Virus record (IMG/VR): IMGVR_UViG_3300024259_000012
Reading direction: 5' to 3' (one strand)
Source of the DNA: a virus
Length of the DNA stretch: 64,000 bases
The notes under the pieces are model-generated. The model made no database searches. It was not told the DNA's origin and saw only the letters and a list, made by a program, of their open reading frames with translations. The position numbers and the translations under genes are program-made. Within the stretch, counting starts at the first letter, position 1; each line of letters begins with the position of its first letter. This document shows, piece after piece, positions 7,170-60,631 of this stretch.

Positions 7170-8043
7170 TTTCAATCTCCTCAATTTTCTCTTTTATAAA
7201 ATCTTTGACATTTCTATGCGGCTTCCAACCGTATCCATTGAACTCACCATCTGAAAGCGTGTCTGCCATCTCACCCTTGGGGCGGCTAACAAATTTAAAA
7301 GTTGCATCTGGGAACAGACTTGCAAGCTCATTCAATGAATGATTTTCACCTCTACCCAATTCAACCGGCGAATACATGCTACATAATTCATCATTATCAA
7401 CTGCTGTGAATAGCCAATCAACAATATCATCAACATGAGTATAATCCCTACGTTGGGCGCCGTCCCCCGTGATTGTCAATGGCAACCCTTGCTCGTATCT
7501 ATCCAACCAAATTCCAAGCACCGTTCCAAATTCAGTGTCGCCAACCATGTGGTCACCATATACATTGTAAAATCTAACTGACACAGCGTTGACATCATAT
7601 AGCGTATAATACATTCTACACAACTGCTCTCCAATTGCCTTGGATGTGGTGTATGGATTTGCATACATGTTGCCCGTCGTTGACGATGAGCTTGAAAATA
7701 TGACCGTTGCGCCGGTTGATTTAGCATATTCCAATATATTGATAGTTGAATCTATATTATTTTTCAAAAACAGTTTCGGATTCTTCAATGAAGGTTGAAT
7801 TCTTGGAAGTGCCGCCAAGTGAAATATCACATCAGGCTTCTCCATGAAATATGTATAATCCTGCACCGTTGTAAGGTCTGCATTGTAGTATTTAACATTC
7901 TTGTGGTCAATTTCATTTGACCTCGTGCCTGTACTGAGATTATCTATCCCAACTACGGTTCATCCAAATTCAACCAATTGCTTGATTAGATTGTATCCAA
8001 TGAATCCATTTGACCCCGTGACTATACATTTTTTATTTTTCAT
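7150..8043 (-). CDS. NAD-dependent nucleotide-sugar epimerase/dehydratase, TGA=Trp at codon 28
   Basis: The GSNGFIG Rossmann motif joins the catalytic YTTSK, RFYNVYG and RDYTHVDD only by reading through TGA 7960-7962. Confidence 0.9.
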
Positions 8044-8809
8044 TCAATATTACTCCCATGTTCTCTAAATCTTCCTTAAACAAAATCCGCAGTTTCAAGT
8101 CGGGATTTGATTTTCTAATAGCCTTAAATTTGTCCTCTTGCAAACTCCAATGGTATGCATTCTTTACATCCACATATGTATCCTCATCAATTAAATAGAA
8201 ATCTGGATAATATGAATGCTCTTCACCATCAATCACATATGGGATTCTACCACGATGACATTTGAATTTTACATCATTCTCATCCAAATGCTGTATGTAT
8301 GCACGTTCCCAAGTTCCTTGAGCTTTTACTGTGGTGCCGTCTTTCAATATGCAATCGTATCATTTGCAGCGTCCAACTTGAACTCCATCCATCTTGCCGT
8401 CCGCTCATGCCTTTTTAGTCATATCAATATGTCTTTGCATGAACTCGGGGTCTTTGAATAATTCTTTGCGGGTGGCACTTGCTTTAGCTCTCGCTTCTGG
8501 TGATTTCATGCCGTTCTTGTCACCAATATTCACAACACCCTTTGACGTTTCACTTATCTTTTTACTATGCTCTAACCACATTTCATGGGCTTTCTCAGCC
8601 CCGTGCTCTTCGGCTCATATACTTTCAACATTTTTACCAAACATACCACTTTGTTCTCCCGAGCGACCATACATTTTTGCTCGCTGTTCTTTAGTCATTT
8701 TAGCATTGTTAGCACGTTTGGTTTTGCCCAATTTACGGTTTCGCTCTGCCCACATTTCGTTTGCTTTTTCTTCGCCGTATTTCTCAATCCATATTTTCAA
8801 CACATTCAT
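8033..8809 (-). CDS. free-standing homing endonuclease (repeat DNA-binding N-terminus plus TnsA-like PD-(D/E)xK domain), 3 TGA=Trp
   Basis: YYPDFYL...VDVKN; TGA at 8615, 8405 and 8360 join two track ORFs; own GGAGA SD and promoter. Confidence 0.75.
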
Positions 8810-8856
8810 AATCTTTCTCCTATTTAAGCTATGGTAGTAACTGTTTCCCATCCATA

Positions 8857-8868
8857 TATAAATAGCAC
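8857..8868 (-). promoter_or_regulatory. GTGCTATTTATA promoter motif
   Basis: Identical 12-mer at 14008-14019 and 32602-32613. Confidence 0.6.
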
Positions 8869-8873
8869 GAAAG

Positions 8874-9802
8874 TTAATTTTCGTCTTGAGTTATTACACG
8901 ACCTTTTAGTTGTTCCCAGTCTTTTTCGGGCCTAACTTCAAGATTCTTTTCCCATGTAGCGTCAAGCATTGTGGTGGTCACTCCAAGCTCCTTTGCTAAG
9001 AATTTTATTGAGTTCAAATCTTTTGGCAGGCATGAAAGCCCGAAACCCAATTTACCATCAGGCCCAGGGACAGAATAGTGTGACTGCCCAATTCGTTTAT
9101 CATACATAACATACGAAACCATTTCATCATAATCAACCCCTAATTTATCACAAATCTGTTTCATTTCATTAAAAAATGATACCTTCGTAGCAAGAAATGT
9201 ATTGGCTACATATTTGACCATTTCTGCAGTGGTTGAATCGGTTAGTAAATACTGAGTCAACTTACTTTCATCTATATTATGATAACCCGTTAAATTCTCA
9301 GCATCAGTAAATATTTTACTATACATATCCTTGACCATTCTACATGCATCAGCATCTCCACCCAAGACAATTCTATCCTGATTCTTAAATTCCTCAATGA
9401 AATTTGCCTCTGTCAAAAATTCAGGGTTGAACACTACCGATAAATTCGGGCTTGTGATTTTATTGTTAATCCACTCCGTAAAGCCAGGAGTGATGGTGCT
9501 TTTGATGACAATCACCTTTCTGCTTTCCAAGTTTAGCATATCCAAAGCGATGATAACGGATTCAACGATTGATGTATTACAGCTACCGTCCTTATTCATT
9601 GGTGTATTCACCGCTATGAAAATAATGTCCGACTTTTCATACACCGTTTGATTGCTACCACATGAAAAATGCTTACTATCGCCGCTCCACGCATTGGCAA
9701 CGTGATTTAAGTCCGACGTATAAATTTCGTACTGCCCATTAAGCCCTCTCGGAGTGCGGTTCCTACGAACCCCATACCTATAACTCCAATTCTATATGTC
9801 AT
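8874..9802 (-). CDS. ugd: UDP-glucose/GDP-mannose 6-dehydrogenase family, with a 1-nt frameshift near 9740
   Basis: IGVIGMGFVG (ATG 9802) is one base out of frame with IKSTI, NPEFL, AEMVKY and GFGLSCLPKD. Confidence 0.8.
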
Positions 9803-10346
9803 TTTGCTCTTCAAAAGTTTGTGCGTACACATTTTTAATTGCATCTATGCCTCGCATTGTAATTGCACGGGTTCCCACGCCTGCGAAGTCGGTGGTCAGT
9901 TTTGGTGCGACCCAATGCATCATAAATTTATCATGACTCCACATATACCATAGGCAATGCTCCTGTTCAAATAAAAATACCGGCTTCAACTCATCAATTG
10001 CCATTTGAACTGTCCATCCGGTGCCACCGTCTACCATTGACTCGTTTACTAATTTTCCAACTGCATATACTGCGGTGGCGTTTTTGACTTGAAACCAATT
10101 CCGACTCAGTAGATTTTTCTCGTATGGCATCACAAGACTATCCACCCCACGCTTCAGCGTTTCGTCTGCCTTTTTAACGTGTTCCCACCCTTCAGTCAGT
10201 TCCGACATGGTAAGTAATTTTTGATTTTCTCCCTCTTGAACATGATTGTAAAACGAGTATGAAATTGATTCAACTCCGTGCTTATTTCCTTCGGTTTCCC
10301 AAGTCATATCTGCTCCTGGGCAACCACCTGAGTGATTTGTATACAT
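9792..10346 (-). CDS. SLOG-superfamily nucleotide-binding protein
   Basis: HSGGCPGAD, RNWFQV, GGTGWTV. Confidence 0.7.
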   Translation of the reverse strand: MYTNHSGGCPGADMTWETEGNKHGVESISYSFYNHVQEGENQKLLTMSELTEGWEHVKKADETLKRGVDSLVMPYEKNLLSRNWFQVKNATAVYAVGKLVNESMVDGGTGWTVQMAIDELKPVFLFEQEHCLWYMWSHDKFMMHWVAPKLTTDFAGVGTRAITMRGIDAIKNVYAQTFEEQNDI

Positions 10347-10828: not shown

Positions 10829-10829
10829 T

Positions 10830-11551: not shown

Positions 11552-11553
11552 AA

Positions 11554-12120
11554 TTATACCTTCTTTAAATCCCAAATTTTGTTGAGAATATTATAGATTA
11601 GTTCCACCTGTTCATCTGTAAATTGCCACCTAACATTGACATTCATATCAGCCCAATCCTGTGGGCGTGAACTCAATTCCTCTGACATTGCCATCCAATC
11701 AGCACACATTTCTGCAATGTATACATCAGGCATAGCTGTTGCGTTTACCATTGTGTCGGGGATAGCATCTCGGTTATCTCGGTTGAACATGGACGGGTTG
11801 TAATCGGGGTCTCACTTCTCGGGGTGGTGACCGTTGTGTAAAATGTGATGCTCTGTAGCACCATTCATTTTGTCCTTCATAATCTGTGGCATATCAAATG
11901 GAACACCGTCTCGCTTACACTTATAGTCTCAGGTTATGAAAATATATGGAATGCGCTCGGGGTCTTCAAATTTAGATTGGTCATGCTTCTTAACAATTTT
12001 CCGTAGCTCTTGGAACTCGGGAAAGAAATCAGTTATTAAATATGCATACTTCTGCACCCGTTTGATGTGTGTATTTGTGCGCTCTTTGTACCACGCATTC
12101 ATGTCATTTGCTAATGTCAT
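11554..12120 (-). CDS. DUF5662-like HD-related protein, 2 TGA=Trp
   Basis: H...HDQSK...HH..N.HHPE(K)W...EMCADW is reconstituted only via TGA 11929 and 11812. Confidence 0.8.
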
Positions 12121-15324: not shown

Positions 15325-16254
15325 TTATAACCCTTCTATTGATTTGTCCCACTGCTTCAGAAATGCTTCCTCTGAATAGTGTAGTTCATACAAGTTGCGT
15401 GCCATCTTTGAGCAATCATTGTAGAAATGCTCATCGGTTTTCAATCTACGTGCTATTTCTTTGGCTTTGGCGATATCACCCACCTTAACACTTGTATATG
15501 GGTGCAGTCGCTGTGTATTCACATTGTCGTACCCAATGCATGGAATTCCCTGATACGCACAATTCAAGTTGAAGGTGCCTGCCGATGGCGTTCCCATTTG
15601 AATGCCATACTTGAACCCACCCAACAATTCTATCCATTCCGACCACCGCATCCATGGATGGTGCGTAATGTCCAACATGTCTTCCTCCGGCTTCATCCTG
15701 CCAGTTGTCAAAGCGTGCACCTCTGTGTCCAATTCTAAGGCCACCTGATATGAATCAAACCCACCATAAGCCTGTACCATGTTGCCGCCCATCATGACCC
15801 CTTTACGGACGCCTACGTGCGGTTTTACATAGTCTGTAATCATTAATGAGTGTAGCAGTTCAGTGCGTACACCGGTCAATCCTTCATAGTAAAGTCTATC
15901 AGAATCGTTGTGGGCGAATAAAACGTCCATCTCGGTCAATAGGTTGAAATACCAAATTTGTTCTGCTATCTCATTGTCTTGCCAATATGTACAGGTTCCC
16001 TCTTGCATGGCTCCAACCTTCTTACAAGCTCGCTTCATGTGTTCAAGGATTGGCCATTCCAAAAGGTAATCCTTTTGCTTTGGAATGATTATAATTCCGA
16101 TATCAAACGAATCGTCCGGAATCCCATCTATCACATTGAGTGGAATGTGGACAGCTTTAAGACTTGCAATTCATGCCAATTCCGTTCGCATGTTAACTTG
16201 TTCTCGTGGAATCATCCCCGTGTAACCAGCTTCTGAAAAGAATGCTATTTTCAT
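15325..16254 (-). CDS. GT-B fold glycosyltransferase-like protein, TGA=Trp at codon 28
   Basis: TAATG-coupled MKIAFFSE...MRTELA(TGA 16171)IASL; C-terminal GTFNLNCAYQGIPCIG. Confidence 0.75.
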
Positions 16255-41195: not shown

Positions 41196-41258
41196 AACTG
41201 TTCTTCCTTTATAACCTTATATACTTATATATAAATAGTGTGTCAATTCCTCAAACGA

Positions 41259-43751: not shown

Positions 43752-43760
43752 GTTCGACTC

Positions 43761-44069: not shown

Positions 44070-44071
44070 TC

Positions 44072-46286: not shown

Positions 46287-47665
46287 TATTCAAATCCACC
46301 CGTTTTCTCCTCATCAACAACAAGCGTTTGATATTTCTTTGACAATTCTCTACGCTTGAATTCTTCTCGGTCATCCATGCGACCCTGTTGCTTTTGACCG
46401 TTATGTGACAGCTCCTCATACATCTCAAAGATGCCCGAGTCGGTATTCATCTTCATTGGTAGTGTTATTCCGTCCCGACCAAAGCGATTTTTGATTATGT
46501 GACACCTTCCAGTGTCCGCAATCTTATCTTCAACTTTACGACTGATTGACATTACAAAATCTGCGGTCATCACCTTTGAATAATCTTCGGCGATTTTCTC
46601 TGCACCAATTATGTCCTCTTCCAATGAACTCCTTGAGGACTGTGAAGCTGTCCAAACTGGAACTCCAAGTTCTCCGGCCATTCCACGTAAATCTTCATAA
46701 ATACGTCGTAATTGAAATCTTAAATCTTTTGCTCCGGATGTGTCTCTGAGCAAATCAGCATAGTCCACGACAATCAAATCGGGCTGTATTTGCTGTAATT
46801 CCATTTGCTTGATATGCGCCATCAGTGTAGTCACTCCGGCACCACGCTGTGGATAATATTTAACAGTCATGTTACCGGCCAAACCACTGAGTGCCTTTGC
46901 AACATCTTCTTTGTGATATTTAATATTCGCCGTTGGGACGTGACTAAAAATAGTATCGAACCGTGTACCCACATAATGCTCATTCAATTCCAACGTATAA
47001 TAAACTACCTTCAATCCGGCTCTAATCCCTGCGGCGGCGATTGCTTGAAGTATCCACGACTTACCAATACCTGCGGGTGCAACCACAACCCCAAGTTCTC
47101 CGGCGGCCAGCCCACCGTCCATCAATTCTGAAAGTGCATTCCATGGTGTCGCTATTGTATCTCTTACATTTTTTGTCAATCTTGCTTCCAATCCTGTTAT
47201 ATAATCATGTCCCAAATCTCTCGGGGCACCCGCCTTCATGGCTTCATCAATCAAACCTTTGATTGCGTCGTATTCTCCTGATTCCAACAAATCTACCGAA
47301 TCAATAATTGCAGTTTTTAACACCTGATTTTTACAGAATTCAAGTATCTTTTCCTGCACAAATTCCAAGTCGGTTGCTTCCAACTGAGACCACGCCGCTT
47401 TCAGTTTCTCTATAACTGATACCTGTAAGATATCATTCTCAATATCATCGACCTGAATCTTTAATACGTCCAATGTTGGAATGTGCTTATACTTGAAAAA
47501 GTATTCTGAAATGTGCTCGACCAACCATTTGTTGCCGTCGCTGTCAAACATATCAGGATTGAGAATATCACCTATTTGTTGAATAAAAGATGTGTCCTTC
47601 AGCAGTGATGTTACAACTTTGGTTTGGAATGAATTTCCAAATCTGCTTAGAGTTTCCTCTGACAT
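46286..47665 (-). CDS. DnaB-like replicative helicase (T4 gp41-like)
   Basis: APAGIGKS, VDYADL, WTASQ, KNRFG. Confidence 0.95.
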   Translation of the reverse strand: MSEETLSRFGNSFQTKVVTSLLKDTSFIQQIGDILNPDMFDSDGNKWLVEHISEYFFKYKHIPTLDVLKIQVDDIENDILQVSVIEKLKAAWSQLEATDLEFVQEKILEFCKNQVLKTAIIDSVDLLESGEYDAIKGLIDEAMKAGAPRDLGHDYITGLEARLTKNVRDTIATPWNALSELMDGGLAAGELGVVVAPAGIGKSWILQAIAAAGIRAGLKVVYYTLELNEHYVGTRFDTIFSHVPTANIKYHKEDVAKALSGLAGNMTVKYYPQRGAGVTTLMAHIKQMELQQIQPDLIVVDYADLLRDTSGAKDLRFQLRRIYEDLRGMAGELGVPVWTASQSSRSSLEEDIIGAEKIAEDYSKVMTADFVMSISRKVEDKIADTGRCHIIKNRFGRDGITLPMKMNTDSGIFEMYEELSHNGQKQQGRMDDREEFKRRELSKKYQTLVVDEEKTGGFE

Positions 47666-47669
47666 ACCA

Positions 47670-48266
47670 TTACCTATTTTTTACGTTGCACATGGTGGTT
47701 GCTTTTTGTCGCTCACACTCAAATACAAATCGCCAAATTCGTTTTACCTTCTGCACATCAACCAACTTAATCAAATACCAGTTCCTAAGTGCCATATCGG
47801 TTAGCACGCCGGTAACATCACCTATAGTTGGGCGGGATGACCGCCAAAAATTTATGAAGTGTTGCTCCATAATTCCATTCAAACAGTTGACCCCGACCAC
47901 AGGAAATGTAAATACTAAACCGGCTTTGGGCTTCATCATTTCAAAGACAACAGGAAAAAATAGGTCTGGATACCCATATGAATCAATATCAATAAAATCA
48001 TATTTTTTTCGCTCTCCACGCAATTTGTAAATTGCATCGAAACTGCTCCCAAATTCTTCCTTGGTCATCGGCGTAACCTTACCATGCTCTTGATAATATT
48101 TTGTTAAATTTCCCTGCCCCGCAAAGACTTCCAAAATGTTGCCATGTATCAAATCTAAGTGATTATCTAACTGCGCCATCTTTTCATCTGGGTGGTGGTA
48201 CTCATCCTCGTTTCCCGCTTGCTTAGCTCGGGTTTCCTTGTGTGTCTCTTTAGTGTGCCCTACCAT
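47670..48266 (-). CDS. SAM-dependent methyltransferase-like protein
   Basis: ILEVFAGQG, YDFIDIDSYG. Confidence 0.7.
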   Translation of the reverse strand: MVGHTKETHKETRAKQAGNEDEYHHPDEKMAQLDNHLDLIHGNILEVFAGQGNLTKYYQEHGKVTPMTKEEFGSSFDAIYKLRGERKKYDFIDIDSYGYPDLFFPVVFEMMKPKAGLVFTFPVVGVNCLNGIMEQHFINFWRSSRPTIGDVTGVLTDMALRNWYLIKLVDVQKVKRIWRFVFECERQKATTMCNVKNR

Positions 48267-48663
48267 CGGTATCCTCTTCAAGCACGTCTAAAATTTTACG
48301 TGCGTATACTCTATCGTATTCTTTAATTTCGTCTGTTAATTCTTCATATGGAACCCAATAGGATTCCCAGTTTTTTAATTTATCAGAAATTTTCTTTTTC
48401 ATTCTTAGTGATGCCCTATTATTCTGCCCGTCGGGGAGTGAATCATGTGCTTCCTGTAATAATTCTGCAATTGACTTGCTCCAAGCTTCCCACTGTTGGT
48501 GTTCTAAATCTGATAATTTTTCTAACATATCAGCACTTTTTAATAACTCTATAACGTCGGTAAATTTAACATATGCTCCTCCGCCATACTTGCCAAATTC
48601 TGTTTCATCGGTGCCGCCGTAAACATCACTAACACCGTGCATTCCATATCTTTGTAGTTTCAT
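48250..48663 (-). CDS. hypothetical protein with a RyR-like motif
   Basis: LEHQQW...VPYEELTDEIKEYDR. Confidence 0.6.
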   Translation of the reverse strand: MKLQRYGMHGVSDVYGGTDETEFGKYGGGAYVKFTDVIELLKSADMLEKLSDLEHQQWEAWSKSIAELLQEAHDSLPDGQNNRASLRMKKKISDKLKNWESYWVPYEELTDEIKEYDRVYARKILDVLEEDTDGRAH

Positions 48664-48714
48664 AACATTTCTCCTTGTTTCTTTGCGTATAAATACTTAT
48701 CATATATACTGTTA

Positions 48715-50367
48715 TTAAACGACCTTAAATTCATTTTTCCATTTATTTTTCGGACTGAAAAACAATCGAGCAATGTTGCTGTCCAATGCGTATGACATTG
48801 AGAAGTCTTTGTTATTTCGTGTTGACCTCCCCAATCCCTGTATGATTTTGTATATGGTCATTAGCTCATATATGTCAGGATAATTATCAAATATGTATCG
48901 TATCCTCTTATCACCCAATGACGGGTATGGTGCCTTCGTAAGAATTTGAAACCGTGATTCATCGTCAGGCAAATCAATACCCTCAAATAACGACGGTGAT
49001 ATCAAAACCGACGGCTTGCCGTTTGTCTTGTGGTCATGCACAGAATCAGCCAATAAGCTTCCACGCTCATGCTCAACCAAGTTTCCCGCCCTGCGTTTTC
49101 TAATTACATTCGCCACCTGCTCGGTAAGCTTAAATGATGATGTCAATATTATACCATTCACATCAGCATGTTCTTTGATAATGTCCGCTACAACGTTTCC
49201 GACCTGATTCACAAAGGCGGGGTTGTTCAAATTTTTATAATTGTAACTACCGTGCTTCAAAAATGCTACACTCTTACTCTCCTGCTTGAACACCGGCGAT
49301 GACTTAATAAATTTTATGTCACTGCGTGGGATTCTCAATGTCTGTGAAATAAATGAAGCATCAATCGTAGCAGACATAAATAATGAATAATCTGTTGTGC
49401 GAAGACGCTTGAACATGCTACCAACAAAAATTGGAGTTATGATGAGTCCATTATCTTGAATGTCGATTGCATATTCATTTTTCTGTGTTTGCACTTCAAA
49501 AATATTACCGGATATGCTCTTAAACATCTTGATAATTTTAGCATAAGATGTATACGCTTTCATATTATTTGCACCAAAATATCGCTTGGCCTGTTCCTCA
49601 TATTCTGCGATGATTTCCTCACATAGCTGTTTCATGGCTTCAATGTATGTGCCATAATTTGACAGGGTGACCCTGCCGGTGTGCAACGCCGATGAAAATT
49701 TATCAATGCGTGGAGCGAAGCCGTCAAATCCCTCAGTCTGGAAGGTATTCATCCGAGACTTCCAAAATTTCAAATTGGACATGGTGAGCTTAAGTGCCAT
49801 ATGATTGCTAAACGTGTCGTTAATTAAATGCGCTTCGTCAAATACTGCTATTTGCCGTTGTTGAAATTGTTGGTTGTACATCGCTGATATGAAGTAGTAT
49901 GAATAATTTGTGATAAAATGGCTCGCCTTGTATTTGCGCTCCTTTAATTCTTTAAACTCACATGCATCACATTTCAGCCTATTGACACCTTTCAATTCTT
50001 TCATAATGCAGTGCTCAGCGGTGTCCTGCAATACAGCACACCCATAGTTGTTGGCACCCTTCACCGTAACAAAGGCATTTCCATACTTTGAAAATGATTC
50101 CCTATACTGCTTGGTCAGCGTATTTGTGCTCATTAAAATGTATGAGCTTGGTGCAGGAACGTCTGTTAATTTTGCTATACATTCCGCTACAATCACAGCA
50201 ACGATAGATTTACCGGTTCCCGTTGGGGCGGACAGCACCACATATTCCTTCTTTTCGTCAATATATGCCACTACAATATCATTGACTAAAGACAACTGAT
50301 TATCTCTTGGCTTCAAATCAAATTTTCTGAAGCAATCCAGTATCAATTTTTCATATTTAATCTTCAT
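48715..50367 (-). CDS. DinG/XPD-family SF2 helicase
   Basis: RDNQ, APTGTGKS, Cys cluster, DEAH, MSAT, EGIDL, QGLGRSTR. Confidence 0.9.
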   Translation of the reverse strand: MKIKYEKLILDCFRKFDLKPRDNQLSLVNDIVVAYIDEKKEYVVLSAPTGTGKSIVAVIVAECIAKLTDVPAPSSYILMSTNTLTKQYRESFSKYGNAFVTVKGANNYGCAVLQDTAEHCIMKELKGVNRLKCDACEFKELKERKYKASHFITNYSYYFISAMYNQQFQQRQIAVFDEAHLINDTFSNHMALKLTMSNLKFWKSRMNTFQTEGFDGFAPRIDKFSSALHTGRVTLSNYGTYIEAMKQLCEEIIAEYEEQAKRYFGANNMKAYTSYAKIIKMFKSISGNIFEVQTQKNEYAIDIQDNGLIITPIFVGSMFKRLRTTDYSLFMSATIDASFISQTLRIPRSDIKFIKSSPVFKQESKSVAFLKHGSYNYKNLNNPAFVNQVGNVVADIIKEHADVNGIILTSSFKLTEQVANVIRKRRAGNLVEHERGSLLADSVHDHKTNGKPSVLISPSLFEGIDLPDDESRFQILTKAPYPSLGDKRIRYIFDNYPDIYELMTIYKIIQGLGRSTRNNKDFSMSYALDSNIARLFFSPKNKWKNEFKVV

Positions 50368-50539
50368 CGTATAACCTTTTCATTCGCTCCTGCTTGCCCT
50401 TTTCGAGCTTTTTGCGTTGATACGTTTCTCTCGCCTTGCGAAGGATTTCACTTTTATTTCGTTCGTAATGTTCCGCTTGTCATTTGCGCTGAGCCTTTCG
50501 GCGTTCCGCATCTGACTTATATTTAAGCTTTCTACCCAT
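50357..50539 (-). CDS. 60-aa basic MGRKK-family protein, TGA=Trp at codon 20
   Basis: MGRKLKYKSDAERRKAQRK(TGA 50480)QAEHYERNKSEILRKARETY. Confidence 0.7.
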
Positions 50540-51584
50540 TATGCTCTTTCGCAAATTTGTCCAACCCAATAAAACACATGGTTAGTCACGTTTCCAAATT
50601 TGGCAATGCTTGATGGATTTGGTCTTCAAGTACCATCTTCTCAAATGCAAATTTATTCAGCGTTGGTATGTCACCCTTGACCAAGCCTCTCAGTGTAGAT
50701 TTGGCGTGCGAGCTTATGTCAACATCATGCAATTGCATCAATTTATAATTGAGACCAAGCACATCCTTGCTGTTCAATATGTTCTCATGTACAGCCAACG
50801 AGCCGGTCTCAGCCGCTTCAAATAAATCATTCACCGTAAATACTGCAGGTTCAACAATTTCAGGAAACCTCTTAACCAGCGTTTTCAGTCCGACGCCTTT
50901 GACGCCAGGAATATTATCAGATTTGTCACCCTCAAGAATTCTATACATCAAAAAATTGTGTGGTGGAATTTCATAATCCCGTTGCACAGCAAGTGGATTG
51001 TATAAAACCTTTTTGGTTGGAGACCACACGGAAATCCGGTCATTTACAAGTTGTAAGAAATCCTTGTCCGTGCTCATTATAACTATATTACTTTCGGTCA
51101 GCAACTGCTTGGAAATATAAGCCATTGAATCATCGGCTTCTATATTTTCAATCGTCACAATTGTCATTGGAAGATGTTTGAGATATTCCAATGCTCGCTG
51201 AATCTGCATGTACATGGACTGTTTTTCATCCTCAACAGAACTGAATTCATCCGACCTATTTACTTTTGATGCAATCTTGCGATTTGCTTTATATTCGGGA
51301 AATAGTTTCTTGCGCCGCTTTGACCCGCCCTTACCATCAAATGTGATAATGACACGAGTTGGTTGTATGGTTTTTATTGCATACCCAACCGAGCGTAAAA
51401 ATCCCGTGATGCCACCCACATGAACCCCATTTACATTGGTAGTTGGGGTCACCGCAAAAGCACGGATAAATGTGTTTAGACCATCTATTATTAAAACCTT
51501 GCTGTCAGTTTCAAGGCTGTCAGCGTTTTCATGCTCATCTTTTAACTGAGTCATGATATTATTAAAAATCTTTCTATCAATCAT
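50532..51584 (-). CDS. 5'-3' exonuclease/flap endonuclease (T4 RNase H-like), TGA=Trp near the C-terminus
   Basis: IDGLN, FDG, YKANR, EADD, STDKD, GDKSDNIPGV; LPNLET(TGA 50586)L. Confidence 0.92.
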
Positions 51585-51733: not shown

Positions 51734-52825
51734 TTATTCATCAACGATTTCAATATCCTCTTCATCATGGACTTCGGCATCGCTTTTGTATTCCATTATT
51801 AAAGCACCACATATCAAATCATATATGTACTCTTCAAGACCTTCATTCTCTGCAAGAGCTTCTTTAAATTTCGCAGGGGTGAATTTAATCACCTTATCGT
51901 TGAACTCAACAACATACGAATTTTTCTCTTTCTTACACAATTTGTAGTCTTTTAGCACCACAAGCCAACTCGCATAATCATCTATACCAGAATCAAAATA
52001 CATGTGGAACTCCGCTTTTCTTAACGGTGGACCCAATCTGTTTTTTGTGATTTCACACTTGGTTTTCATACCAACGATTTCTTCACTTTTCTTAATTCTT
52101 CCAAGATTTGAAAGACGGATGCGAACCGATGCGTGGAATGGCAATGCTTTACCACCCGATGTTGTATATTTATCACCGAACATTGCACCTAATTTGTCAC
52201 GCAATTGATTAGTAAAAACTATTGCAATTTTTTCTTTGCTGATTAAATTGGTAATTTTTCTCATAGCCTTAGACATGATAATTGCTTTTGCCGTAGCCCA
52301 GCCTTCCTTATCAAAATCTTGCTCCATTTCTACCTTTGTGGATGCGCCCGCCACGCTATCAACTAAAATAGCAACAAGCCTGTCGCTATCACCTTCACGA
52401 ACCTTGGCAATAATGTCTTCAATTGTTTCAAAAACATCTTCCATAGTTTCCGCTGGGACATACACCATCTCTTGTGTATTAACACCAATTGCATTTAAAA
52501 ATTGTCGGCTAACCGCAGATTCAGTATCAATGTATACTGCGATTCCACCTTTTTTCTGACACTCTGCCAGAATGTGTGCGCCAACCAAACTTTTACCGGA
52601 CGCTTCAAGGCCATTAATTTCACATATTCTACCAACTGGTATTCCACCATGTGGCATATTTGCAATGCGTAAATCTAATATACTTGAGCCGGTTGAAATT
52701 CAATCGGAAATATCAGCGGGATTTTCATCATCAAGAAAATGTGCAACCTTTAGTCCGCCACCTGAATTCAAGGAATCTGCAATTGAATTAACAAGCACAT
52801 CTTCCCTATCTATTGTATCTGTCAT
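51734..52825 (-). CDS. recA: RecA/UvsX recombinase, TGA=Trp at codon 42
   Basis: D(TGA 52700)ISTGSSILD, GLEASGKS, IDTE, VDSVA, TNQLR, SGGKAL.F. Confidence 0.95.
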
Positions 52826-52885: not shown

Positions 52886-53665
52886 TTATGCTGTTGCCTT
52901 GGCCTTGTTGAACAGGTCATCGAAATCAGCGGCGGTTGCAGACTGGGATGTAACCTCAGCCTGTTGTGGTGATGGAGTGTCGGTTACTTCAGTATCTTCT
53001 TCTTCATCCGTTGGATTCAGATATTGGACTAAAGCATCCTTCAAGTCATCATATGTTAATTCCTGATAGACTTCCCTAATATCCTTTTGGTTATTAAGTA
53101 GTGCATCCAACTGAGCTTTGTTCTCAGTCAATGGTGTCTGATTAGGTTTAACACGGATTGTTGTTTTTGGAAAGTTTGCGCCGGTTTCTTCCTTTGGAAT
53201 GAATTTCACCGTGATGTCACGACCGTTTAACGGGTCTGAAATATCACCATAATCTTCATCAAGAAAGAATTCCATTAGCTCAGTATTAACTAACTTTCCA
53301 AAGCCCCAAAACTTAACACCTTGAGCTTCTTCACCACGAACAACTACAGGTAGAAATGTACGTGTTTTGGCCTCAAGTTTACGAGCCATTTGATAAGAAT
53401 CCTTATCTCCGTTTGCTCTTAGTTTAATTGCGAATTCTTCGATTGGGTCAGGACGACCGAATGAAAGGGGTGACAAGTATGTTTTTCCACCAATGTCATA
53501 GTGGAATTGCATTTCAATAAATGGATTATCCGGTACGTGCTTATATGGTACTACACGAATGACCGTTTCACCATTAGTTGGTTTTCACAGGCTTGTGGTT
53601 TTGTTTGACTCGCTGTTTAATTGTGTTAGTTTTTTACGAAGTGCATCAAGATTGATTGCTCCCAT
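52886..53665 (-). CDS. single-stranded DNA-binding protein (T4 gp32-like), TGA=Trp at codon 27
   Basis: L(TGA 53585)KP...IRVVPY...PFIE..FHY, VVVRGEE, FWGFGK, GRDI, acidic tail; GAGGAG SD. Confidence 0.88.
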
Positions 53666-56067: not shown

Positions 56068-56078
56068 TTCATACCACG

Positions 56079-57029
56079 TTAGAATTGGCCGTACTCCACT
56101 TGGAAAGTTGGTATTCCAACTACCTCTCTCCAGTGTTCAATCATTTGGTCACGGTCATCCAAAATGAACAACACATTGTATTTGCCCTTGATTTCAGCTT
56201 CATACAATTCATCCTTGATAATTGAATCTCTCCTTGAATCGTTTGGTGCTCTCATAAATAAGTTGTCACCATACTTTACAGTAAAGGCGGTCTTATCTCT
56301 GAACCACCGAAGTGTTTCGTCACGGGCGTTTCCATCACGACCTGATAAGAATATGATTTTAACTCGTTCATGCTGTTCATCCCATGGTAACATATCATTG
56401 TGAAATTGATATGTTTCTAATATATGTTGAACTGGGGCATTCACATCATCCTCGTACACAGCAGACCAATCAAATGGACTTCTACCAGTCATCTTAGCGA
56501 TGGTTCCGTCAATGTCAACCAAGATACATTTTGGCAATGACTCATCTTGGTCAATGTAAAATGACTCATTCTTTGTTGGTGGATAGTATGTCTCAGGAAC
56601 CAACAAAAGCTTTCCTGGCTTGATATACTTGTTATAGAACGTATCTACCACATCCGGTGGAACTGCATCTTCACGGTTGTCATTCCGCCTGTGAGCCTCT
56701 TTCAAGGTCACTTCAACCATTGTTTCAACTACCTTCACATCACCAACTTTTTGAGCGATGGCGTGCCATTCGTTGACAGTCTTTTGACGCAAGTTTGTAT
56801 CATCGGTTACAACATTCAACCCCTTTTTCAAAGCGTCAAACGCCATAGCTTGGGTTGCCTTCGTGATTATGGTCTCATTTTTCTGAGTGAAAACTGACAT
56901 GTTCATCATTTTTCTAAACTCATCACGATTGATTCTAACCCAAGATTTTGGGTTTTTAGCAACAAATTTACGTGCTTCTGTTGATTTTCCGGATGCCGGA
57001 ATTCCTCTATATATTCTAAGTGTCTGCAT
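56079..57029 (-). CDS. pseT: polynucleotide 5'-kinase/3'-phosphatase (T4 PseT-like)
   Basis: GIPASGKST, RINRD, DDTNL; DIDGT, LSGR, K, LDDR. Confidence 0.92.
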   Translation of the reverse strand: MQTLRIYRGIPASGKSTEARKFVAKNPKSWVRINRDEFRKMMNMSVFTQKNETIITKATQAMAFDALKKGLNVVTDDTNLRQKTVNEWHAIAQKVGDVKVVETMVEVTLKEAHRRNDNREDAVPPDVVDTFYNKYIKPGKLLLVPETYYPPTKNESFYIDQDESLPKCILVDIDGTIAKMTGRSPFDWSAVYEDDVNAPVQHILETYQFHNDMLPWDEQHERVKIIFLSGRDGNARDETLRWFRDKTAFTVKYGDNLFMRAPNDSRRDSIIKDELYEAEIKGKYNVLFILDDRDQMIEHWREVVGIPTFQVEYGQF

Positions 57030-57252
57030 TTATAATTCCCGCCTCCAAATCCTTAATATATTCAACCGCCAAGTCAATGGCTTTCATGGCACACCCCTGT
57101 CTTGACTGTGTGCCGTCTTTATGTGTCCGCAACTCACCGTTGCCATCCATTGGGTCGTATTCAAATTCTGCGAGTGGAATCTTTGAATCTTCACTCTCAA
57201 CTATAATAGTGTCGTTAGCTTCAAAATCCCACCAATATTTACTTGACATCAT
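57016..57252 (-). CDS. hypothetical protein
   Basis: ORF with GGAG SD. Confidence 0.6.
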   Translation of the reverse strand: MMSSKYWWDFEANDTIIVESEDSKIPLAEFEYDPMDGNGELRTHKDGTQSRQGCAMKAIDLAVEYIKDLEAGIINADT

Positions 57253-57782
57253 GCTATCTCCTTGTATTCAAACAATTCGTCCAGCATTTTCCACGCTTTG
57301 GCAAACTGATTTCCACGCTTCAGTGCAAACCTGAATACCGGATATTCTCTACGATACTGCGAATATAGTCGGTGACCCTCAGCTTTTGAATTACTTCCAT
57401 TTGCATAGCGGTCACACATTTTCAAAAAGGTTCCCAATCGGCTATCACGGGTCTTTGGCAGGGTCTTGAACATGCGTTCAATTCTGTTCTTCCCAGATTC
57501 ATCTGTGACTGAGAAAATAACATCGGCTTCGTCTGTACCAAACTTAGATTCAACCTTGTTGTATGACATACCAGTGTCTTCAATCAAATCGTGACCAAAT
57601 ACAGCCCGAATTAAAATCTCATAATCGTGCTTCGAAAGACTGTCATCCATGAATAAATCAATAATTTCACGAACCATATCCAAATGAACACTGTATGATT
57701 TTCCAGTACCATATGTCTGTTTAACTTGGTCGTGCTTACTCTTAGCAAACGCTCTCAATTCTTTGATGTCATTTATTATCAT
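57249..57782 (-). CDS. HD-domain hydrolase, SpoT/Mesh1-like small alarmone hydrolase
   Basis: H..V.Q..G...Y..HL, GHDLIEDT, VTD, K.CDR..N; ends at TGA (57201 if read through). Confidence 0.8.
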   Translation of the reverse strand: MIINDIKELRAFAKSKHDQVKQTYGTGKSYSVHLDMVREIIDLFMDDSLSKHDYEILIRAVFGHDLIEDTGMSYNKVESKFGTDEADVIFSVTDESGKNRIERMFKTLPKTRDSRLGTFLKMCDRYANGSNSKAEGHRLYSQYRREYPVFRFALKRGNQFAKAWKMLDELFEYKEIA

Positions 57783-58644
57783 AAAGCACATCCAATAACT
57801 TTTTGTAAAATGCCAATGGGTTGGCAGTTGTTGCTAAGCCAGATACCTCTCCGGCTCCTGTCTCTAATATAAACGGTTTTTTGTCTCCTGCAAGTGCAAA
57901 ATCAATTGTCATGAATGTTGAGTCAAGTTCATTTGCGATGCGTAATAAAATATTTGGAACAATCGGGTCAAAGTGAACACCCTCTTCATTGTTCGCATCA
58001 ATGGAAATTATTTGACCATTGAGAATGAACGCACGAAATTCCTGCTTGATACCATCTATTTCATTTATAGGGATGTATTCCTTTGAAACGATGCCTTTAT
58101 TGAAGCCGTACATTTTCCGACTTTCAATCATATTTTCAATTGTACGTCTTGCCGCCTTGGCATCCATTGGTTTTTTCACATGCATGGCGTTTTCAACACC
58201 CTTTGCAGACTTGACCCAATCCTTGACAATATACGGCTTGTAATCAAGATGTATTGCTATGGACTGCGTGTGAAATTCCTCTCCAACAATTATGTCAGTG
58301 TTTGGGGAATATTGGTGCAGGGTGTCGGAATATTTGTATGCGTATGGAAAATAATGCACAGTTACATATTGGTCAGTTCGTTGCAACGTCGTAAATCCAA
58401 CCCCTCTAAGACCATTTTCAAATCTATTGTATTGCTCTTCGGTCAGCATCCAACCCCGATACAAAATTGTAGTAGCCTGTGCTCTAACCCTGAAAGGATT
58501 TACCCACTCTTCGTCGTTTAGCAGTGCATCATAATCAAATAATATAACCGCTTCACCGAGCAATTGTAGGGCTTCCCACTCAGCGTGGAAATCGTAATCC
58601 GGCTGTCGCTTGTTTATCGGGTTCCATGGCATTGCAAAAATCAT
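57769..58644 (-). CDS. R2K-clade ATP-grasp ligase
   Basis: YRGWML, IVKDWVKS.K, EFRAFIL, TIDFA, ILE.G.GEVSGL; ends at TGA (57742 if read through). Confidence 0.8.
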   Translation of the reverse strand: MIFAMPWNPINKRQPDYDFHAEWEALQLLGEAVILFDYDALLNDEEWVNPFRVRAQATTILYRGWMLTEEQYNRFENGLRGVGFTTLQRTDQYVTVHYFPYAYKYSDTLHQYSPNTDIIVGEEFHTQSIAIHLDYKPYIVKDWVKSAKGVENAMHVKKPMDAKAARRTIENMIESRKMYGFNKGIVSKEYIPINEIDGIKQEFRAFILNGQIISIDANNEEGVHFDPIVPNILLRIANELDSTFMTIDFALAGDKKPFILETGAGEVSGLATTANPLAFYKKLLDVLYDNK

Positions 58645-58648
58645 AATG

Positions 58649-58868
58649 TTACCAATCTATTTTATTTGATTGTATTGAGGCAATTCCCCATATACATGTG
58701 ACTGCGATATCTTCCAATTCCGCAATAATTTTCTCATGGTCATTTGCATGAATTTCATCTTTGAATTCACGAACTTCCTCATCTAAAACTCCCGAGATTT
58801 CATGAATGGTCTACAGCTACAATCGCATATTCTCGGATTGTTATTTCCTCGTGTTTACATTCACCCAT
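58649..58868 (-). pseudogene. out-of-frame chimera: unrelated N-terminus joined to a MazG-like C-terminal half
   Basis: MGECKHEEITIREY... lies in one frame; HEISGVLDEEVREFKDEI...ELEDIAV...IDW-TAA lies in another, blocked upstream by TAGs. Confidence 0.55.
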
Positions 58869-59110
58869 TATCTGCTCCCGTCCTTAAATGCTTCTTTTGT
58901 CTTGTCTGAAAATTTCTTGATGTCTTCCATTTCCATGTCAAATTTACGCCAAACGTATTGTTCTATGGCCCCGTACAAATCTGCCAATTCACATAATTGA
59001 AGTACCAAATCGTCCTGCTCCCAAGCATCTTCAAGCTCAACAAACTCTTCCTTGATTTTTGAAAAGTGTCCGTACTTGCCTCTTGGTATGTCTTTCTTGT
59101 GGTAGCCCAT
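58868..59110 (-). CDS. MazG-like NTP pyrophosphatase
   Basis: KIKEEFVELEDA...ELADL. Confidence 0.75.
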   Translation of the reverse strand: MGYHKKDIPRGKYGHFSKIKEEFVELEDAWEQDDLVLQLCELADLYGAIEQYVWRKFDMEMEDIKKFSDKTKEAFKDGSR

Positions 59111-59670
59111 TATTTATCCCGTTTTGTGTTTTTGTTCATTATAACCCTTGACAGCCTTGGCTCCGCACATCCCGTGCCGTAAATCCAAGTCAAAAATTCT
59201 GATTGTCGGATTCCATAGCTCCCAAGTTCATAGCCATTGTATTTGATATCATACCCATCAGCGGTTACGAATCTCTCAAATTTGTTTGGCGTCTTGAGGT
59301 ATTTCGCAAAGAAATCTTCTGCCGCAATCAACACTTGCATAAGTGCATCCCGAGACACATCATCGGTTTTTATCAATTCATTTTTTAAGAAATATTTACC
59401 ATGCATGGCGTCTCGTGGGTCTCTCCTAAAACATGGGGTGACCGTTTGAAATTGCCCAAGTGGAAGAAAGCCCTTGAGATACAATTCAAGAAATGACTGT
59501 TCACCCGATGCAACTAAATTTTTTCCGGTTGATACTTGGTATGGCAAAGTGTGTTCTGGCCTCGTGATACTATCTATGTATTCAGAGACCGTCCACGGGG
59601 CTTCTATGCGCTTAAAACCGCATTCCTCGTAGTATGTTATGGACTCTGCTATGTATTTATAATTTATCAT
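59110..59670 (-). CDS. minimal class II aminoacyl-tRNA synthetase-like protein (SerRS-like catalytic core only)
   Basis: Motif 1 GF..IEAP, ASGEQ, motif 2 PCFR....F.K.E, ELGS, motif 3 GTG.A..R. Confidence 0.75.
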   Translation of the reverse strand: MINYKYIAESITYYEECGFKRIEAPWTVSEYIDSITRPEHTLPYQVSTGKNLVASGEQSFLELYLKGFLPLGQFQTVTPCFRRDPRDAMHGKYFLKNELIKTDDVSRDALMQVLIAAEDFFAKYLKTPNKFERFVTADGYDIKYNGYELGSYGIRQSEFLTWIYGTGCAEPRLSRVIMNKNTKRDK

Positions 59671-59675
59671 GCTGT

Positions 59676-59704
59676 ATAATACAAAAAAATCCCTGCAGAT
59701 GCAA
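59676..59704 (-). promoter_or_regulatory. sigma70-like promoter TTGCAT-N17-TATTAT, likely leaderless
   Basis: 17-nt spacer; ATG only 5 nt after the -10; no SD. Confidence 0.7.
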
Positions 59705-59738
59705 GGATTATTTTATTAGGTTGTGTTGTGTGATGTTA

Positions 59739-60152
59739 TTAAATGTTGTTCTCCCATTCAATCGTATTGATGATAGTGTGAATCTTGGTGTGAATGTGCT
59801 TGAATCCATCTTTGGTGGTGAGCAACAAACTGTTCTGAAATTCACTTCAATCAATCGGAAATGACTTGTCCAAGACGCCATTGTTTTTTCTCCGTATAAC
59901 TTCGTTTAGGCTATTGATGGTGTATAGCGTGTTGGTCTGCTTTTTCCTGTGCAACGATATTGTGTCGCTATTGGTTATGAAATCATCACCTGCAAATTCA
60001 ACATTGTATGTGCATACCAACTGAGTAGGTTCGGCCACATTATAGAATACATATATTTTATTAAATACAATATTATGATATCCAACTATTACATCAATCG
60101 TATCATTCAATTGTTCTACTTTAGAAAACGTCGCCAACAAACTTGTACGCAT
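59739..60152 (-). CDS. conserved large-phage hypothetical protein, one TGA=Trp
   Basis: TISLHRKKQTNTLYTINSLN...FPID(TGA 59847)SEFQNSLLLT. Confidence 0.8.
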
Positions 60153-60631
60153 TAGTCAGTTACCTCTATATCATCTACTGATACCCATTCAGAACCAGGC
60201 TTCTCTTCTTTAAGAATGCCGGTTGAAGTTTCTGAATCATCCGAGCCTGTGATTTGATAATCAGGAAACGGGCTATCGGCAACAACAAAAGTGGAACCTG
60301 TGATTTGGATTTCCGTTCCATCAATTAGTGCATCAGATTCTACAAGACCCGCTTCACCCAATTCTATGGATTCTTCAAGCGTAGTTCCAATTCCAACAAA
60401 AAGGTTTTCACCAAGAATTGGTATTGGTGGTGTGGCAGGAATCGGTTCCACACGGTCACCCTTCAAATTTGTAATAAATTCATTTATCGCTTGAACCGGC
60501 CATTCAAATTCAACCAATACTTCTCGCAATAACATTTGATGTCCGAAATTTTTTGGGTCGGGCTTTCCATCAGATACTTTAAACGCTCACTCTGTTAATA
60601 TGTTCTCCAACATTCCTTCATAATCAGTCAT
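60152..60631 (-). CDS. acidic hypothetical protein, TGA=Trp at codon 15
   Basis: AAGGAG SD; ILTE(TGA 60587)AFKVSDGKPDPKN in frame with the track ORF. Confidence 0.75.

Follow-up and report, generated by a model that had tools for sequence, protein, structure and literature searches.

Does the placement of in-frame UGA codons near the starts of selected genes act as a translational switch in this phage, or does it follow from an ordinary change of code? The question arises from a preliminary description of the 64,000-nucleotide stretch of DNA analysed here (the window), in which TGA was noted as a rare Trp codon skewed towards the 5′ ends of genes, and one early UGA was proposed to make SSB, RecA, glycan enzymes and endonucleases dependent on a phage suppressor tRNA. 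The window belongs to a marine T4-like myophage of ~146 kb that carries RecA, PolB, NrdJ and T4-type genes for sheath and baseplate. The observation itself is partly confirmed and its interpretation partly supported: the facts hold, but the special meaning proposed for them mostly does not, and the best fit is the simpler alternative that the description itself offered, recent reassignment combined with A/T bias at 5′ ends.

In a curated gene set the window contains 31 TGA and 316 TGG codons for Trp (9% TGA). Between positions 7960 and 60589 we count 26 in-frame TGAs where 27 had been reported, and PolB (9 TGG), NrdJ (16 TGG) and the glycosyltransferase at 33985-35586 (10 TGG) indeed have none. 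Eight TGA sites correspond to TGG/Trp in standard-code relatives, as aligned to the 98%-complete, standard-code genome G002: SSB codon 27, RecA codon 42, exonuclease codon 333, GT4 codon 44, codon 28 of both gene 16254 and the epimerase, codon 102 of gene 60152, and one in a gene outside the window. Four of the eight are TGG/Trp also in about 20 further relatives, in which in-frame TGA is essentially absent (at most one, in two loci). Judged from these aligned homologues, UGA is a sense codon for Trp in this phage, at about one in ten Trp codons. Since the TGAs occupy conserved Trp positions, full-length SSB, RecA, glycan enzymes and others would require UGA decoding. The TGA share of Trp codons (~9-12%) lies far below the 55-64% share of A-ending codons in other NNR pairs, which suggests that TGA is young or still selected against. 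TGA is clustered in some genes.

The genes concerned are collected in the table below.

Features of the window, with in-frame TGA codons (c, codon number; all on the minus strand)
Feature	Position	Strand	TGA codons and remarks
NAD-dependent sugar epimerase	7150..8043	-	c28 (7960-7962); Pfam Epimerase domain, residues 7-217
Endonuclease-I-like gene (8809)	8033..8809	-	c65, c135, c150 (8615-8617, 8405-8407, 8360-8362); AGGAG-supported start at 8809
DUF5662 gene (12120)	11554..12120	-	c64, c103 (11929-11931, 11812-11814)
Putative glycan-cluster gene 16254	15325..16254	-	c28 (16171-16173), then 7 TGG; AGGAG start at 16254
Gene 21810	21088..21810	-	c239 (21094-21096); ATGA overlap with next gene's ATG (21095-21097)
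Cytidylyltransferase-like gene (22664)	22311..22664	-	c20, c51 (22605-22607, 22512-22514); AGGAG start
APH-like kinase (26257)	25442..26257	-	c37, c138 (26147-26149, 25844-25846); APH domain
Gene 32577	31933..32577	-	c81, c94 (32335-32337, 32296-32298); GTG start with AGGAG
GT4-type glycosyltransferase	32625..33983	-	c44 (33852-33854), then 4 TGG
Uncertain ORF (39698), earlier called 'HEG'	38949..39698	-	c125, c146, c229; tentative gene model
TGA-free block	40275..50367	-	Helicase, small genes, DnaB-like helicase/primase, NrdJ, PolB and one further gene
Conserved 60-aa 'MGRK' ORF	50357..50539	-	c20 (50480-50482); end overlaps true helicase start (50367)
5'-3' exonuclease	50532..51584	-	c333 (50586-50588), late sense TGA
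RecA	51734..52825	-	c42 (52700-52702), then 2 TGG
SSB-like gene	52886..53665	-	c27 (53585-53587), then 1 TGG
Operon without internal TGA	56079..59670	-	TGA stops in genes 58644 and 57782 (57769-57771; 57249-57251)
Gene 60152	59739..60152	-	c102 (59847-59849)
Gene 60631	60152..60631	-	c15 (60587-60589), then 2 TGG; AGGAG start
820-codon ORF, C-terminal part	62575..64000	-	Start outside window (~65037); 6 TGA

The early codon numbers given previously were reproduced, with Shine-Dalgarno-supported starts, for the epimerase (28), gene 16254 (28), the cytidylyltransferase (20), the kinase (37) and GT4 (44), and likewise for RecA (42), SSB (27), gene 60631 (15), the MGRK ORF (20) and gene 5563 (22), most being validated by homology. 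The kinase start at 26257 was placed from gene packing, and coding potential 5′ of codon 37 is ambiguous. At RecA codon 42 over 20 standard-code relatives all have Trp (TGG), and every recoded relative examined (L001, L028 and G006) has TGA. SSB codon 27 is TGG/Trp in standard-code relatives, TGA in L001 and TGG in G006. Codon 28 of gene 16254 and codon 44 of GT4, in both cases aligned from residue 1, are TGG/Trp in G002, and in G006 they are TGA and TGG, respectively. The epimerase TGA lies within the Rossmann fold, aligned to Tyr in PDB 3icp and to TGG/Trp in G002. Pfam matches span codon 20 of the cytidylyltransferase-like gene (CTP_transf_like, residues 6-47) and both TGAs of gene 12120 (DUF5662, residues 9-180), and gene 32577 has an orthologue in G006. 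The MGRK ORF shares ~70% identity with its L001 orthologue, where codon 20 is TGG; an extended helicase N-terminus that would contain 'TGA 44' was rejected as a by-product of frames overlapping this ORF. Gene 60631 has TGG/Trp at codon 15 in both L001 and G006. Codon 102 of gene 60152 is TGG/Trp in ~17 standard-code relatives and TGA in L001 and G006, while codon 333 of the exonuclease is TGG/Trp in L001 and ~15 standard-code relatives, with the 17 C-terminal residues beyond it conserved. The 820-codon ORF, pieced together from identical contigs, has TGA sites inside alignments to G001 and G006. Genes 8809, 39698 and 12120 do hold the eight TGAs attributed earlier to three 'HEGs', but only the first has an endonuclease domain (Phage_endo_I, residues 182-260 of the longer reading); homologues gave no validation of its mid-gene TGAs at codons 65, 135 and 150, and ORF 39698 has no Pfam match and weak coding potential. 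In gene 21810 a TAA follows one codon past TGA 239; this TGA is more likely to be a stop, either relict or still in use, than a Trp codon.

The positional skew was assessed after curation of gene starts, automatic calls having inflated the number of early TGAs; four of these proved spurious. Curation lowered the early-versus-late odds ratio (OR) from 3.1 to 1.6-1.8 (p ~0.2). Divided at codon 50, the window gives an OR of 1.77 (p=0.19) and the 82-kb main block 1.58 (CI 0.82-3.0, p=0.21), the latter indistinguishable (p=0.47) from the NNA/NNG control of 1.23 (range 1.2-1.3). The TGA share falls from 19% at codons 11-50 to 6% beyond codon 400 and codons 1-10 contain no TGA, but log(position) has no significant predictive value, and its sign becomes positive when 'first Trp' is added to the model. 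The list of early sites, although accurate, was selective: 20 of the 31 window TGAs lie past codon 50. The 5′ skew is weak and roughly of the size expected from the general preference for A-ending codons near the start of genes. Nor did the reported purine excess after TGA (22 of 27, with two T) distinguish these codons: the same span has 19 purines and three T among 26, and purines follow 73% of TGA, 67.5% of TGG and 64.5% of all codons (p=0.25-0.53).

There is also a division at the level of the genome. Of the 55 genes that lie beyond the main block, 19 (35%) have TGA stops, 11 of which form ATGA overlaps; standard-code G002 has TGA stops in 42 of 200 genes (21%), mostly ATGA overlaps. In the main block stops are mostly TAA, and just two or three TGA stop/start overlaps are left. 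The phage is a dual-code system of a known kind, in which early clusters keep TGA stops. Such stops, so often in ATGA, argue for a standard-code host in which TGA-bearing genes would be fully read only after a switch, and it is from this layout that we infer both the host's code and the timing of the switch. Within the window the operon at 56079..59670 resembles a standard-code unit in which TGA probably acts as stop; the stop of gene 57782 lies in an ATGATG overlap, the next start being preceded by AAGGAG. Replication genes, rather than the structural genes usually implicated, had been named as targets of the proposed switch, and here the data point the other way. Of the 96 Trp codons in structural genes adjoining the window 21 are TGA (22%), against 31 of 347 (9%) within it (p=0.001), and all 40 Trp codons of the helicase-primase-NrdJ-PolB block are TGG (P=0.007 at the genome-wide TGA share); more TGA in structural genes is the usual pattern of recoded phages. 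The postulated suppressor tRNA was not found in the ~103 of ~146 kb (~70% of the genome) searched, and neither a release factor nor TrpRS turned up there.

In-frame TGA is shared by a recoded clade comprising L028 (90% nucleotide identity), G001/L001 (77%) and G006 (140 kb), within which individual sites turn over. Orthologues do keep some TGAs at the same codons, nine being shared with G001 and five with G006, but seven and 13, respectively, occur only in the window, while 14 are peculiar to G001 and 11 to G006. Sharing nevertheless exceeds that of K/E/Q third positions (OR 6.1 vs 2.0 for G001, 4.7 vs 1.7 for G006).

On an adaptive reading, selection would place and retain one UGA at the first Trp of particular middle and late genes (RecA, SSB, sheath, glycan enzymes), pre-switch ribosomes halting after a short, cheap and harmless peptide and later ones reading through. 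TGA does occupy the first Trp in 16 of 28 mixed genes (10.6 expected, p=0.02; OR 2.59, CI 1.36-4.92), an effect that remains with position controlled (p=0.013); the window alone gives nine genes against 7.2 expected (p=0.25), and the 64-82 kb block, unseen by the earlier reader, seven against 3.4 (p=0.009). About ten genes carry one TGA, at the first Trp, and only TGG afterwards, RecA has TGA as its first Trp in every recoded genome examined, and the first Trp of the sheath is TGA in two lineages at different codons (49 here, 133 in G006). We nonetheless regard this reading as quite unlikely. Control pairs show a like first-occurrence bias towards A (OR 1.35 for Gln, 1.59 for Lys, 1.32 for Glu, 1.36 for Leu and 1.84 for Arg AGR); the Trp value numerically exceeds every one of these, by a rough calculation lying ~1.8 standard errors over their mean, but its confidence interval overlaps them. 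In G001 and G006 the effect is small (1.60 and 1.44), individually non-significant and matched by their controls, and the between-gene trend is reversed. The same class of gene has many mid-gene or late TGAs (exonuclease 333, 60152 codon 102, the 820-aa and 935-aa structural genes), and SSB-27, GT4-44, epimerase-28, 60631-15 and MGRK-20 are all TGG in G006. Moreover, position alone is not diagnostic, because a gate works anywhere in a gene. Somewhat less improbable, though still unlikely, is a gradient of cost: if UGA decoding competes with release factor 2, each TGA would bring some premature termination, with waste rising with distance, and TGG-to-TGA changes would be tolerated best early and in weakly expressed genes, the skew being a by-product of purifying selection with no switch. 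The falling TGA share along genes is consistent with this, as are the low share relative to other NNR pairs, the TGAs found anywhere in endonuclease-like genes, and the long, presumably abundant sheath with TGA at its first Trp followed by nine TGG; the behaviour of log(position) speaks against it, and neither G001 nor G006 has a positional gradient.

Two further readings were considered. If the host itself used code 4, with UGA read as Trp and RF2 absent, and the phage merely followed it, TGA as Trp, the predominance of TAA stops in the main block and the failure to find a suppressor tRNA would all fit; the TGA stops of the early clusters, the small TGA share despite A-ending preference elsewhere, the standard code of the nearest relatives and the cyanobacterial host of the nearest cultured one make this very improbable. 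Scarcely credible is an artefact of annotation, with early TGAs lying 5′ of true starts or in broken genes and no recoding. Automatic calls were indeed wrong for four TGAs in a false '3343' gene, for the helicase 'TGA-44' and for the 56119 start, and their correction removed most of the apparent skew. Against this, 11 of 15 early TGAs lie within alignments or Pfam domains with Trp at the site in relatives, and the sequence recurs in independent samples at 99.97-100% identity; an artefact is refuted for the validated sites, among which 80799-26, 26257-37, 5563-22 and 5194-43 do not figure.

The explanation we favour, and think probable, is a fairly recent shift of UGA from stop to Trp in middle and late genes, with early clusters still terminating genes with UGA. 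TGA would have arisen from ancestral TGG by G-to-A change at ordinary, often conserved Trp positions, with turnover between relatives. The slight first-Trp tendency would mainly reflect the preference for A- over G-ending codons near starts, as in every NNR pair; selection against a leaky codon may also be weaker where early termination is least costly, adding a little to the tendency. A gene with in-frame UGA would reach full length only when UGA is decoded, and to this extent the idea of a translational gate stands, as does the existence of two codes; 5′ placement as a designed gate is not supported. As any in-frame UGA requires decoding, the real gate would be the genome-wide two-code layout and not codon position within genes.

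Near the start of bacterial genes, rare or A/U-rich codons and weakly structured mRNA are favoured, an N-terminal bias reportedly treated by Eyre-Walker and Bulmer in 1993, Tuller and colleagues in 2010 and Goodman and colleagues in 2013. As there, A-ending codons are favoured early and at their first occurrence in all NNR families of this phage (OR 1.3-1.8) and TGA goes in the same direction, but the Trp point estimate is somewhat larger (2.6) and codons 1-10 are free of TGA. Mycoplasma and Spiroplasma (code 4), like their phages, use UGA as the principal Trp codon and never to terminate; in the present phage it is the less frequent Trp codon and still ends early genes. The closest cultured relative, Microcystis phage Mel-JY01 (PP395634.1), is a distant one, with identity over almost the whole length of 53% for RecA and 48% for the tail sheath. 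The TAG-to-Gln recoded crAss-like and Lak phages (Yutin et al. 2021, PMC7886860; Peters et al. 2022, PMC9523058) are reported likewise to reassign a stop within the phage genome, with early/late separation of translation proposed, but differ in codon, amino acid, Bacteroidota hosts and common suppressor tRNAs. Closest are the TGA-to-Trp phages of standard-code hosts, such as those of the Jade and Agate clades (Borges et al., bioRxiv 10.1101/2021.08.26.457843; Nat Microbiol 2022), with standard-code early regions, variably recoded replication genes, close standard-code relatives and a suppressor tRNA detectable in just 35% of cases. Those are gut phages whose relatives are pre-adapted and depleted of TGA stops; the present phage belongs to a marine T4-like myophage lineage with RecA, its standard-code relatives, with 21% TGA stops in G002, are not so depleted, its TGA share is low, and the 103 kb read held neither suppressor tRNA nor release factor nor TrpRS. 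The two systems are alike in reading in-frame TGA as Trp, in having close relatives that use the standard code, and in keeping part of the genome readable under that code; in both, recoded codons are most frequent in structural genes, replication genes are recoded to varying degrees, and a suppressor tRNA often escapes detection. The two-code layout has already been described for recoded phages.

The focal phage is a dual-code phage of a kind already known, in which UGA is reassigned to Trp, and belongs to a marine T4-like clade. In the window every long ORF lies on the minus strand, G+C is around 0.40 and AGGAG-type ribosome sites precede the starts. The sequence recurs at 99.97-100% identity across many ENA, JGI and Logan assemblies (samples containing the phage include ERZ27250154, ERZ27250230 and JGI 3300072015), and identical assemblies were joined into a 103,356-bp composite that spans window coordinates 82060 down to -21295 (negative values and those above 64000 lie outside the window). 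T4-type gp13, sheath, gp19 and baseplate genes are found upstream of the window and small-gene clusters, on both strands, downstream. Contig L033 was considered as a variant strain and rejected, being 99.97% identical with identical TGA states, which leaves no variation within the population to draw on. Among cultured phages the nearest is Microcystis phage Mel-JY01, with around 50% amino-acid identity in RecA and sheath; Megablast against GenBank phages and a PolB scan of IMG/VR gave no match, and a metagenome scan with SSB gave a single distant one. Precomputed Pfam matches of identical proteins place an Anti-Pycsar Apyc1/metallo-beta-lactamase-fold protein at 3964-4749 and a Phage_30_3 (T4 gp30.3-like) protein at 2040-2501, both possible anti-defence genes.

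Standard-code relatives (45-57% identity; loci L002-L023 and L029, and the 98%-complete genome G002) are essentially without in-frame TGA in aligned genes, L013 and L016 having one each and the others none. The recoded records other than the focal phage are L028 (90% at the nucleotide level), G001/L001 (77%, 39 kb) and G006 (140 kb), the last with a sheath 70% identical to that of the focal phage. IMG/VR contains several further recoded members of the clade, L048-L054 having an in-frame TGA in their sheath genes.

Comparison with these sequences shows that TGA is a Trp codon in the window phage. The TGA at codon 42 of RecA aligns with an invariant Trp that over 20 contigs of related marine phages encode by TGG, and those at codon 27 of SSB, codon 333 of the exonuclease and codon 102 of the gene at 60152 likewise face TGG/Trp in about 20 standard-code relatives. 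Against G002, TGG/Trp is also found opposite codon 44 of the GT4 gene, codon 28 of both the gene at 16254 and the epimerase, and codon 193 of the gene at 79804, giving eight Trp sites overall; the remaining five aligned sites face Phe (3), Ile (1) and Leu (1). Since no site lies opposite Gly or Cys, code 25 (UGA=Gly) and selenocysteine were ruled out. The epimerase TGA falls inside the Rossmann fold, opposite Tyr in PDB 3icp, both the DUF5662 gene and the cytidylyltransferase have Pfam domains that run across their TGAs, and the late exonuclease TGA must be sense rather than stop, since 17 conserved residues come after it. Codon 20 of the short MGRK ORF is TGA here and TGG in L001. The TAA of this ORF overlaps the helicase start codon region, and a TGA proposed for codon 44 of a long helicase N-terminus was rejected as its out-of-frame shadow, so the codon numbers of the preliminary description prove correct.

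Some genes hold clusters of TGAs (dispersion p<0.0002). The two structural ORFs listed in the table are cut into 3-4 same-frame pieces by standard-code gene callers, and endonuclease-like and DUF5662 genes hold 2-3 TGAs each. Among standard-code early genes outside the window (about -11511 to -12116; L035/L036) there is also a 201-codon ORF with TGA at codons 7, 58, 75 and 149 and no TGG.

Features associated with TGA use and RNA genes in the focal phage and its relative G006 (window coordinates unless another record is named)
Feature	Coordinates	Strand	Description
ATGA/TGATG stop-start overlap	57249-57252		Gene-end in-frame TGA over SD-supported (AAGGAG) next start
ATGA/TGATG stop-start overlap	21094-21097		Gene-end in-frame TGA over SD-supported next start
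Possible third TGA stop/start overlap	57769		Perhaps an overlap of the same kind
820-codon structural ORF	~65037 to 62575 (crosses upper window edge)		6 in-frame TGAs
935-codon structural ORF	about 70555-67748 (outside window)		3 in-frame TGAs
MGRK ORF, conserved, basic, 60 aa	50357-50539		Between exonuclease and helicase genes; ~70% identical in L001
Three tandem tRNA genes	G006:C1:81817-82058 (L128:1333-1574)		Between NrdJ and PolB; Gly-type acceptor stems, U73
Stand-alone RNA, ~200 nt	L036:6290-6540; about -15240 to -14990 (outside window)	minus	TTGACA-17-TATTAA promoter, strong terminator

In other parts of the same genome TGA serves as a stop. Of the 55 genes in the small-gene clusters that lie outside the main block, 19 terminate in TGA, 11 through ATGA stop/start overlaps, and in G002 TGA ends 42 of 200 genes, 34 as ATGA. 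Within the 82-kb main block, comprising the window and the structural genes at 64-82 kb, TAA terminates nearly all genes and just two or three TGA stop/start overlaps are left. At the two SD-supported overlaps of the table TGA has probably kept its role as a stop, in a genome that reads it as Trp elsewhere; the operon at 56079-59670 has TGA at gene ends only. A 141-codon gene outside the window (~76063-75638, in L032) ends in tandem TGA TGA with TAA three codons on, apparently a reinforced stop or a relic one. As a share of Trp codons, TGA makes up 21 of 96 (22%) in the 64-82 kb structural block versus 31 of 347 (9%) in the window (p=0.001), with none among 40 in the helicase-to-PolB block and an overall fraction of 9-12%.

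A gene with an in-frame UGA depends on UGA decoding for its full-length protein. Early genes ending in UGA make it most likely that the host terminates there; these stops and the relatives together suggest a host with the standard code, whose reading of UGA the phage would change during infection. ARAGORN and Rfam found no tRNA, UCA suppressors included, between window coordinates -21295 and 82060 (~70% of an inferred 146 kb), no tRNA or Rfam family within the window, and nothing on contigs L030 and L032-L036 or in G001. Relaxed ARAGORN runs allowing introns gave false positives only, with kilobase 'introns', and the standard-code G002 has no tRNA whatsoever. G006 carries three tRNA genes, with anticodons UCC and ACC and, in the third, an irregular 6- or 8-nt anticodon loop (UUUCCA); UCA is present in none, and the syntenic interval of the window phage (43761-44069) contains no tRNAs. 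The stand-alone RNA on L036 ends 3' in a perfect T-arm (GTGAGTTCGAGCCTCAC) followed by the acceptor strand CGGACAG, with a 7-bp variable-arm-like hairpin before the T-arm. Neither Rfam nor DNA comparison with G001, G002, G003, G005 and G006 gave a match for it, and a link between this tRNA-like RNA and UGA decoding was sought and none established.

The preliminary description had proposed that UGA-Trp is rare and concentrated towards gene 5' ends, possibly acting as a translational gate on chosen genes. Automatic gene calls did give a strong 5' skew (odds ratio (OR) 3.1, p=0.004; OR 2.65, p=0.002), which was withdrawn after gene starts had been curated by homologues, independent code-11 gene calls and frame-specific coding potential. 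Seven early TGAs turned out to stem from over-extended starts (four in a false '3343' gene, the helicase codon 44, one in an HEG fragment and codon 5 of the gene at 71339), and the start of the 56119 gene, also over-extended, was corrected in the same way. In the curated set of 52 TGA and 391 TGG codons, the TGA share is 0% at codons 1-10, 19% at both 11-25 and 26-50, 14% at 51-100, 11.5% at 101-200, 9.5% at 201-400 and 5.6% beyond 400. Divided at codon 50, the early excess has an OR of 1.58 (p=0.21) in the main block, or 1.77 (p=0.19) with the window taken alone; the Lys/Glu/Gln/Leu NNA/NNG control gives 1.23, from which Trp does not differ significantly (p=0.47); in regression, log(position) does not predict TGA. 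Significance rises when TGAs within the final 5-20 codons are left out as relic stops, a filter not relied on because exonuclease codon 333, a proven sense codon, lies inside that zone. The purine preference claimed for the base following TGA (73%, versus 67.5% after TGG and 64.5% after all codons) is likewise not significant. The original observation was accurate in its particulars and overstated as a pattern.

Under correction of the GC3 type, named by the preliminary description as a refuting test, the positional skew is essentially lost; an effect of order may narrowly survive it. Being the first Trp codon of a gene predicts TGA in regression (OR 2.59, CI 1.36-4.92, p=0.006); 16 of 28 mixed genes have TGA as first Trp, against 10.6 expected, and in the 64-82 kb block, which had played no part in the initial observation, the figures are 7 and 3.4 (p=0.009). 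Control codons, however, also favour A-ending forms at first occurrence (OR 1.35 for Gln, 1.59 for Lys, 1.32 for Glu, 1.36 for Leu (TTR) and 1.84 for Arg (AGR)), and the Trp value falls within each relative's own control range in G001 (1.60) and G006 (1.44), where the between-gene trend is reversed. Most of the pattern, and perhaps all of it, can therefore be put down to the general favouring of A-ending codons near gene 5' ends. Relatives do keep TGA at the same codons more often than Lys, Glu and Gln third positions would lead one to expect (OR 6.1 vs 2.0 in G001, 4.7 vs 1.7 in G006), but turnover is large, with 9 sites shared and 21 unshared in G001, and 5 and 24 in G006.

The plain reading, which we consider probable, is recent reassignment with drift from TGG and a general 5' A-bias. 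An adaptive gate seems doubtful beside it. Selection in the clade would then keep a single UGA at the first Trp of certain middle or late genes (RecA, sheath, SSB and several glycan enzymes), whose synthesis would wait for a UGA-reading switch, a proposal to which we give little credence; the switch would be tRNA-independent and phage-induced, for example RF2 inhibition letting host tRNA-Trp read UGA, and a UGA placed early would limit the length of abortive products. Its best points are anecdotal: all recoded genomes examined have TGA as the first Trp codon of RecA, and two lineages have it as that of the sheath, at different codons (49 in the focal phage, 133 in G006). Residue 49 of the sheath (L032:3534-5882, outside the window) is Phe in 72 related phages, TGG-encoded Trp in L052 and TGA-encoded Trp here and in G001; the L052 state implies that Phe was replaced by Trp before TGG changed to TGA. 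Against the gate stand the A-bias of the control codons (1.3-1.8) and the small Trp effect in the relatives (1.4-1.6), where some sites are kept and many are not. A position-coded gate does not clearly stand out from ordinary codon bias, and we know of no described family that has one.

A cost gradient under leaky decoding, which the falling binned shares favour and the regression on position does not, is unlikely, though less so than the gate. That the host itself uses code 4 is very improbable: TGA is a frequent stop in the early clusters and a minor Trp codon, and a layout with early TGA stops and TGA-Trp elsewhere argues against such a host. Slighter still is the chance of an annotation artefact, to which the seven miscalled early TGAs belong and the conserved Trp sites do not.

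The low TGA share and the free use of TGA stops in standard-code relatives suggest that reassignment in the lineage may still be in an early phase. Such a lineage lends itself to studying the capture of a stop codon and the means by which UGA is decoded without a visible suppressor tRNA. It can be compared directly with standard-code G002 and recoded G001 and G006, and single TGG-to-TGA changes can be traced at conserved Trp positions. A position-coded gate, if true, would add a further layer of phage gene timing, on evidence that does not rise above ordinary 5' codon bias.

Dual-code phages have so far been described mainly from gut metagenomes, and the present lineage is marine and T4-like. 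Borges et al. (bioRxiv 10.1101/2021.08.26.457843) describe the same layout in recoded phages whose hosts use the standard code. As in those phages, in-frame TGA occurs at the Trp positions of homologues, part of the genome keeps the standard code with the codon as stop, the recoded codon is densest in structural or late genes, and close standard-code relatives exist. Phages of code-4 (Mollicutes-type) hosts, by contrast, use TGA as their principal Trp codon and never to terminate genes, whereas in the focal phage it accounts for 9-12% of Trp codons and frequently terminates genes in the early clusters.
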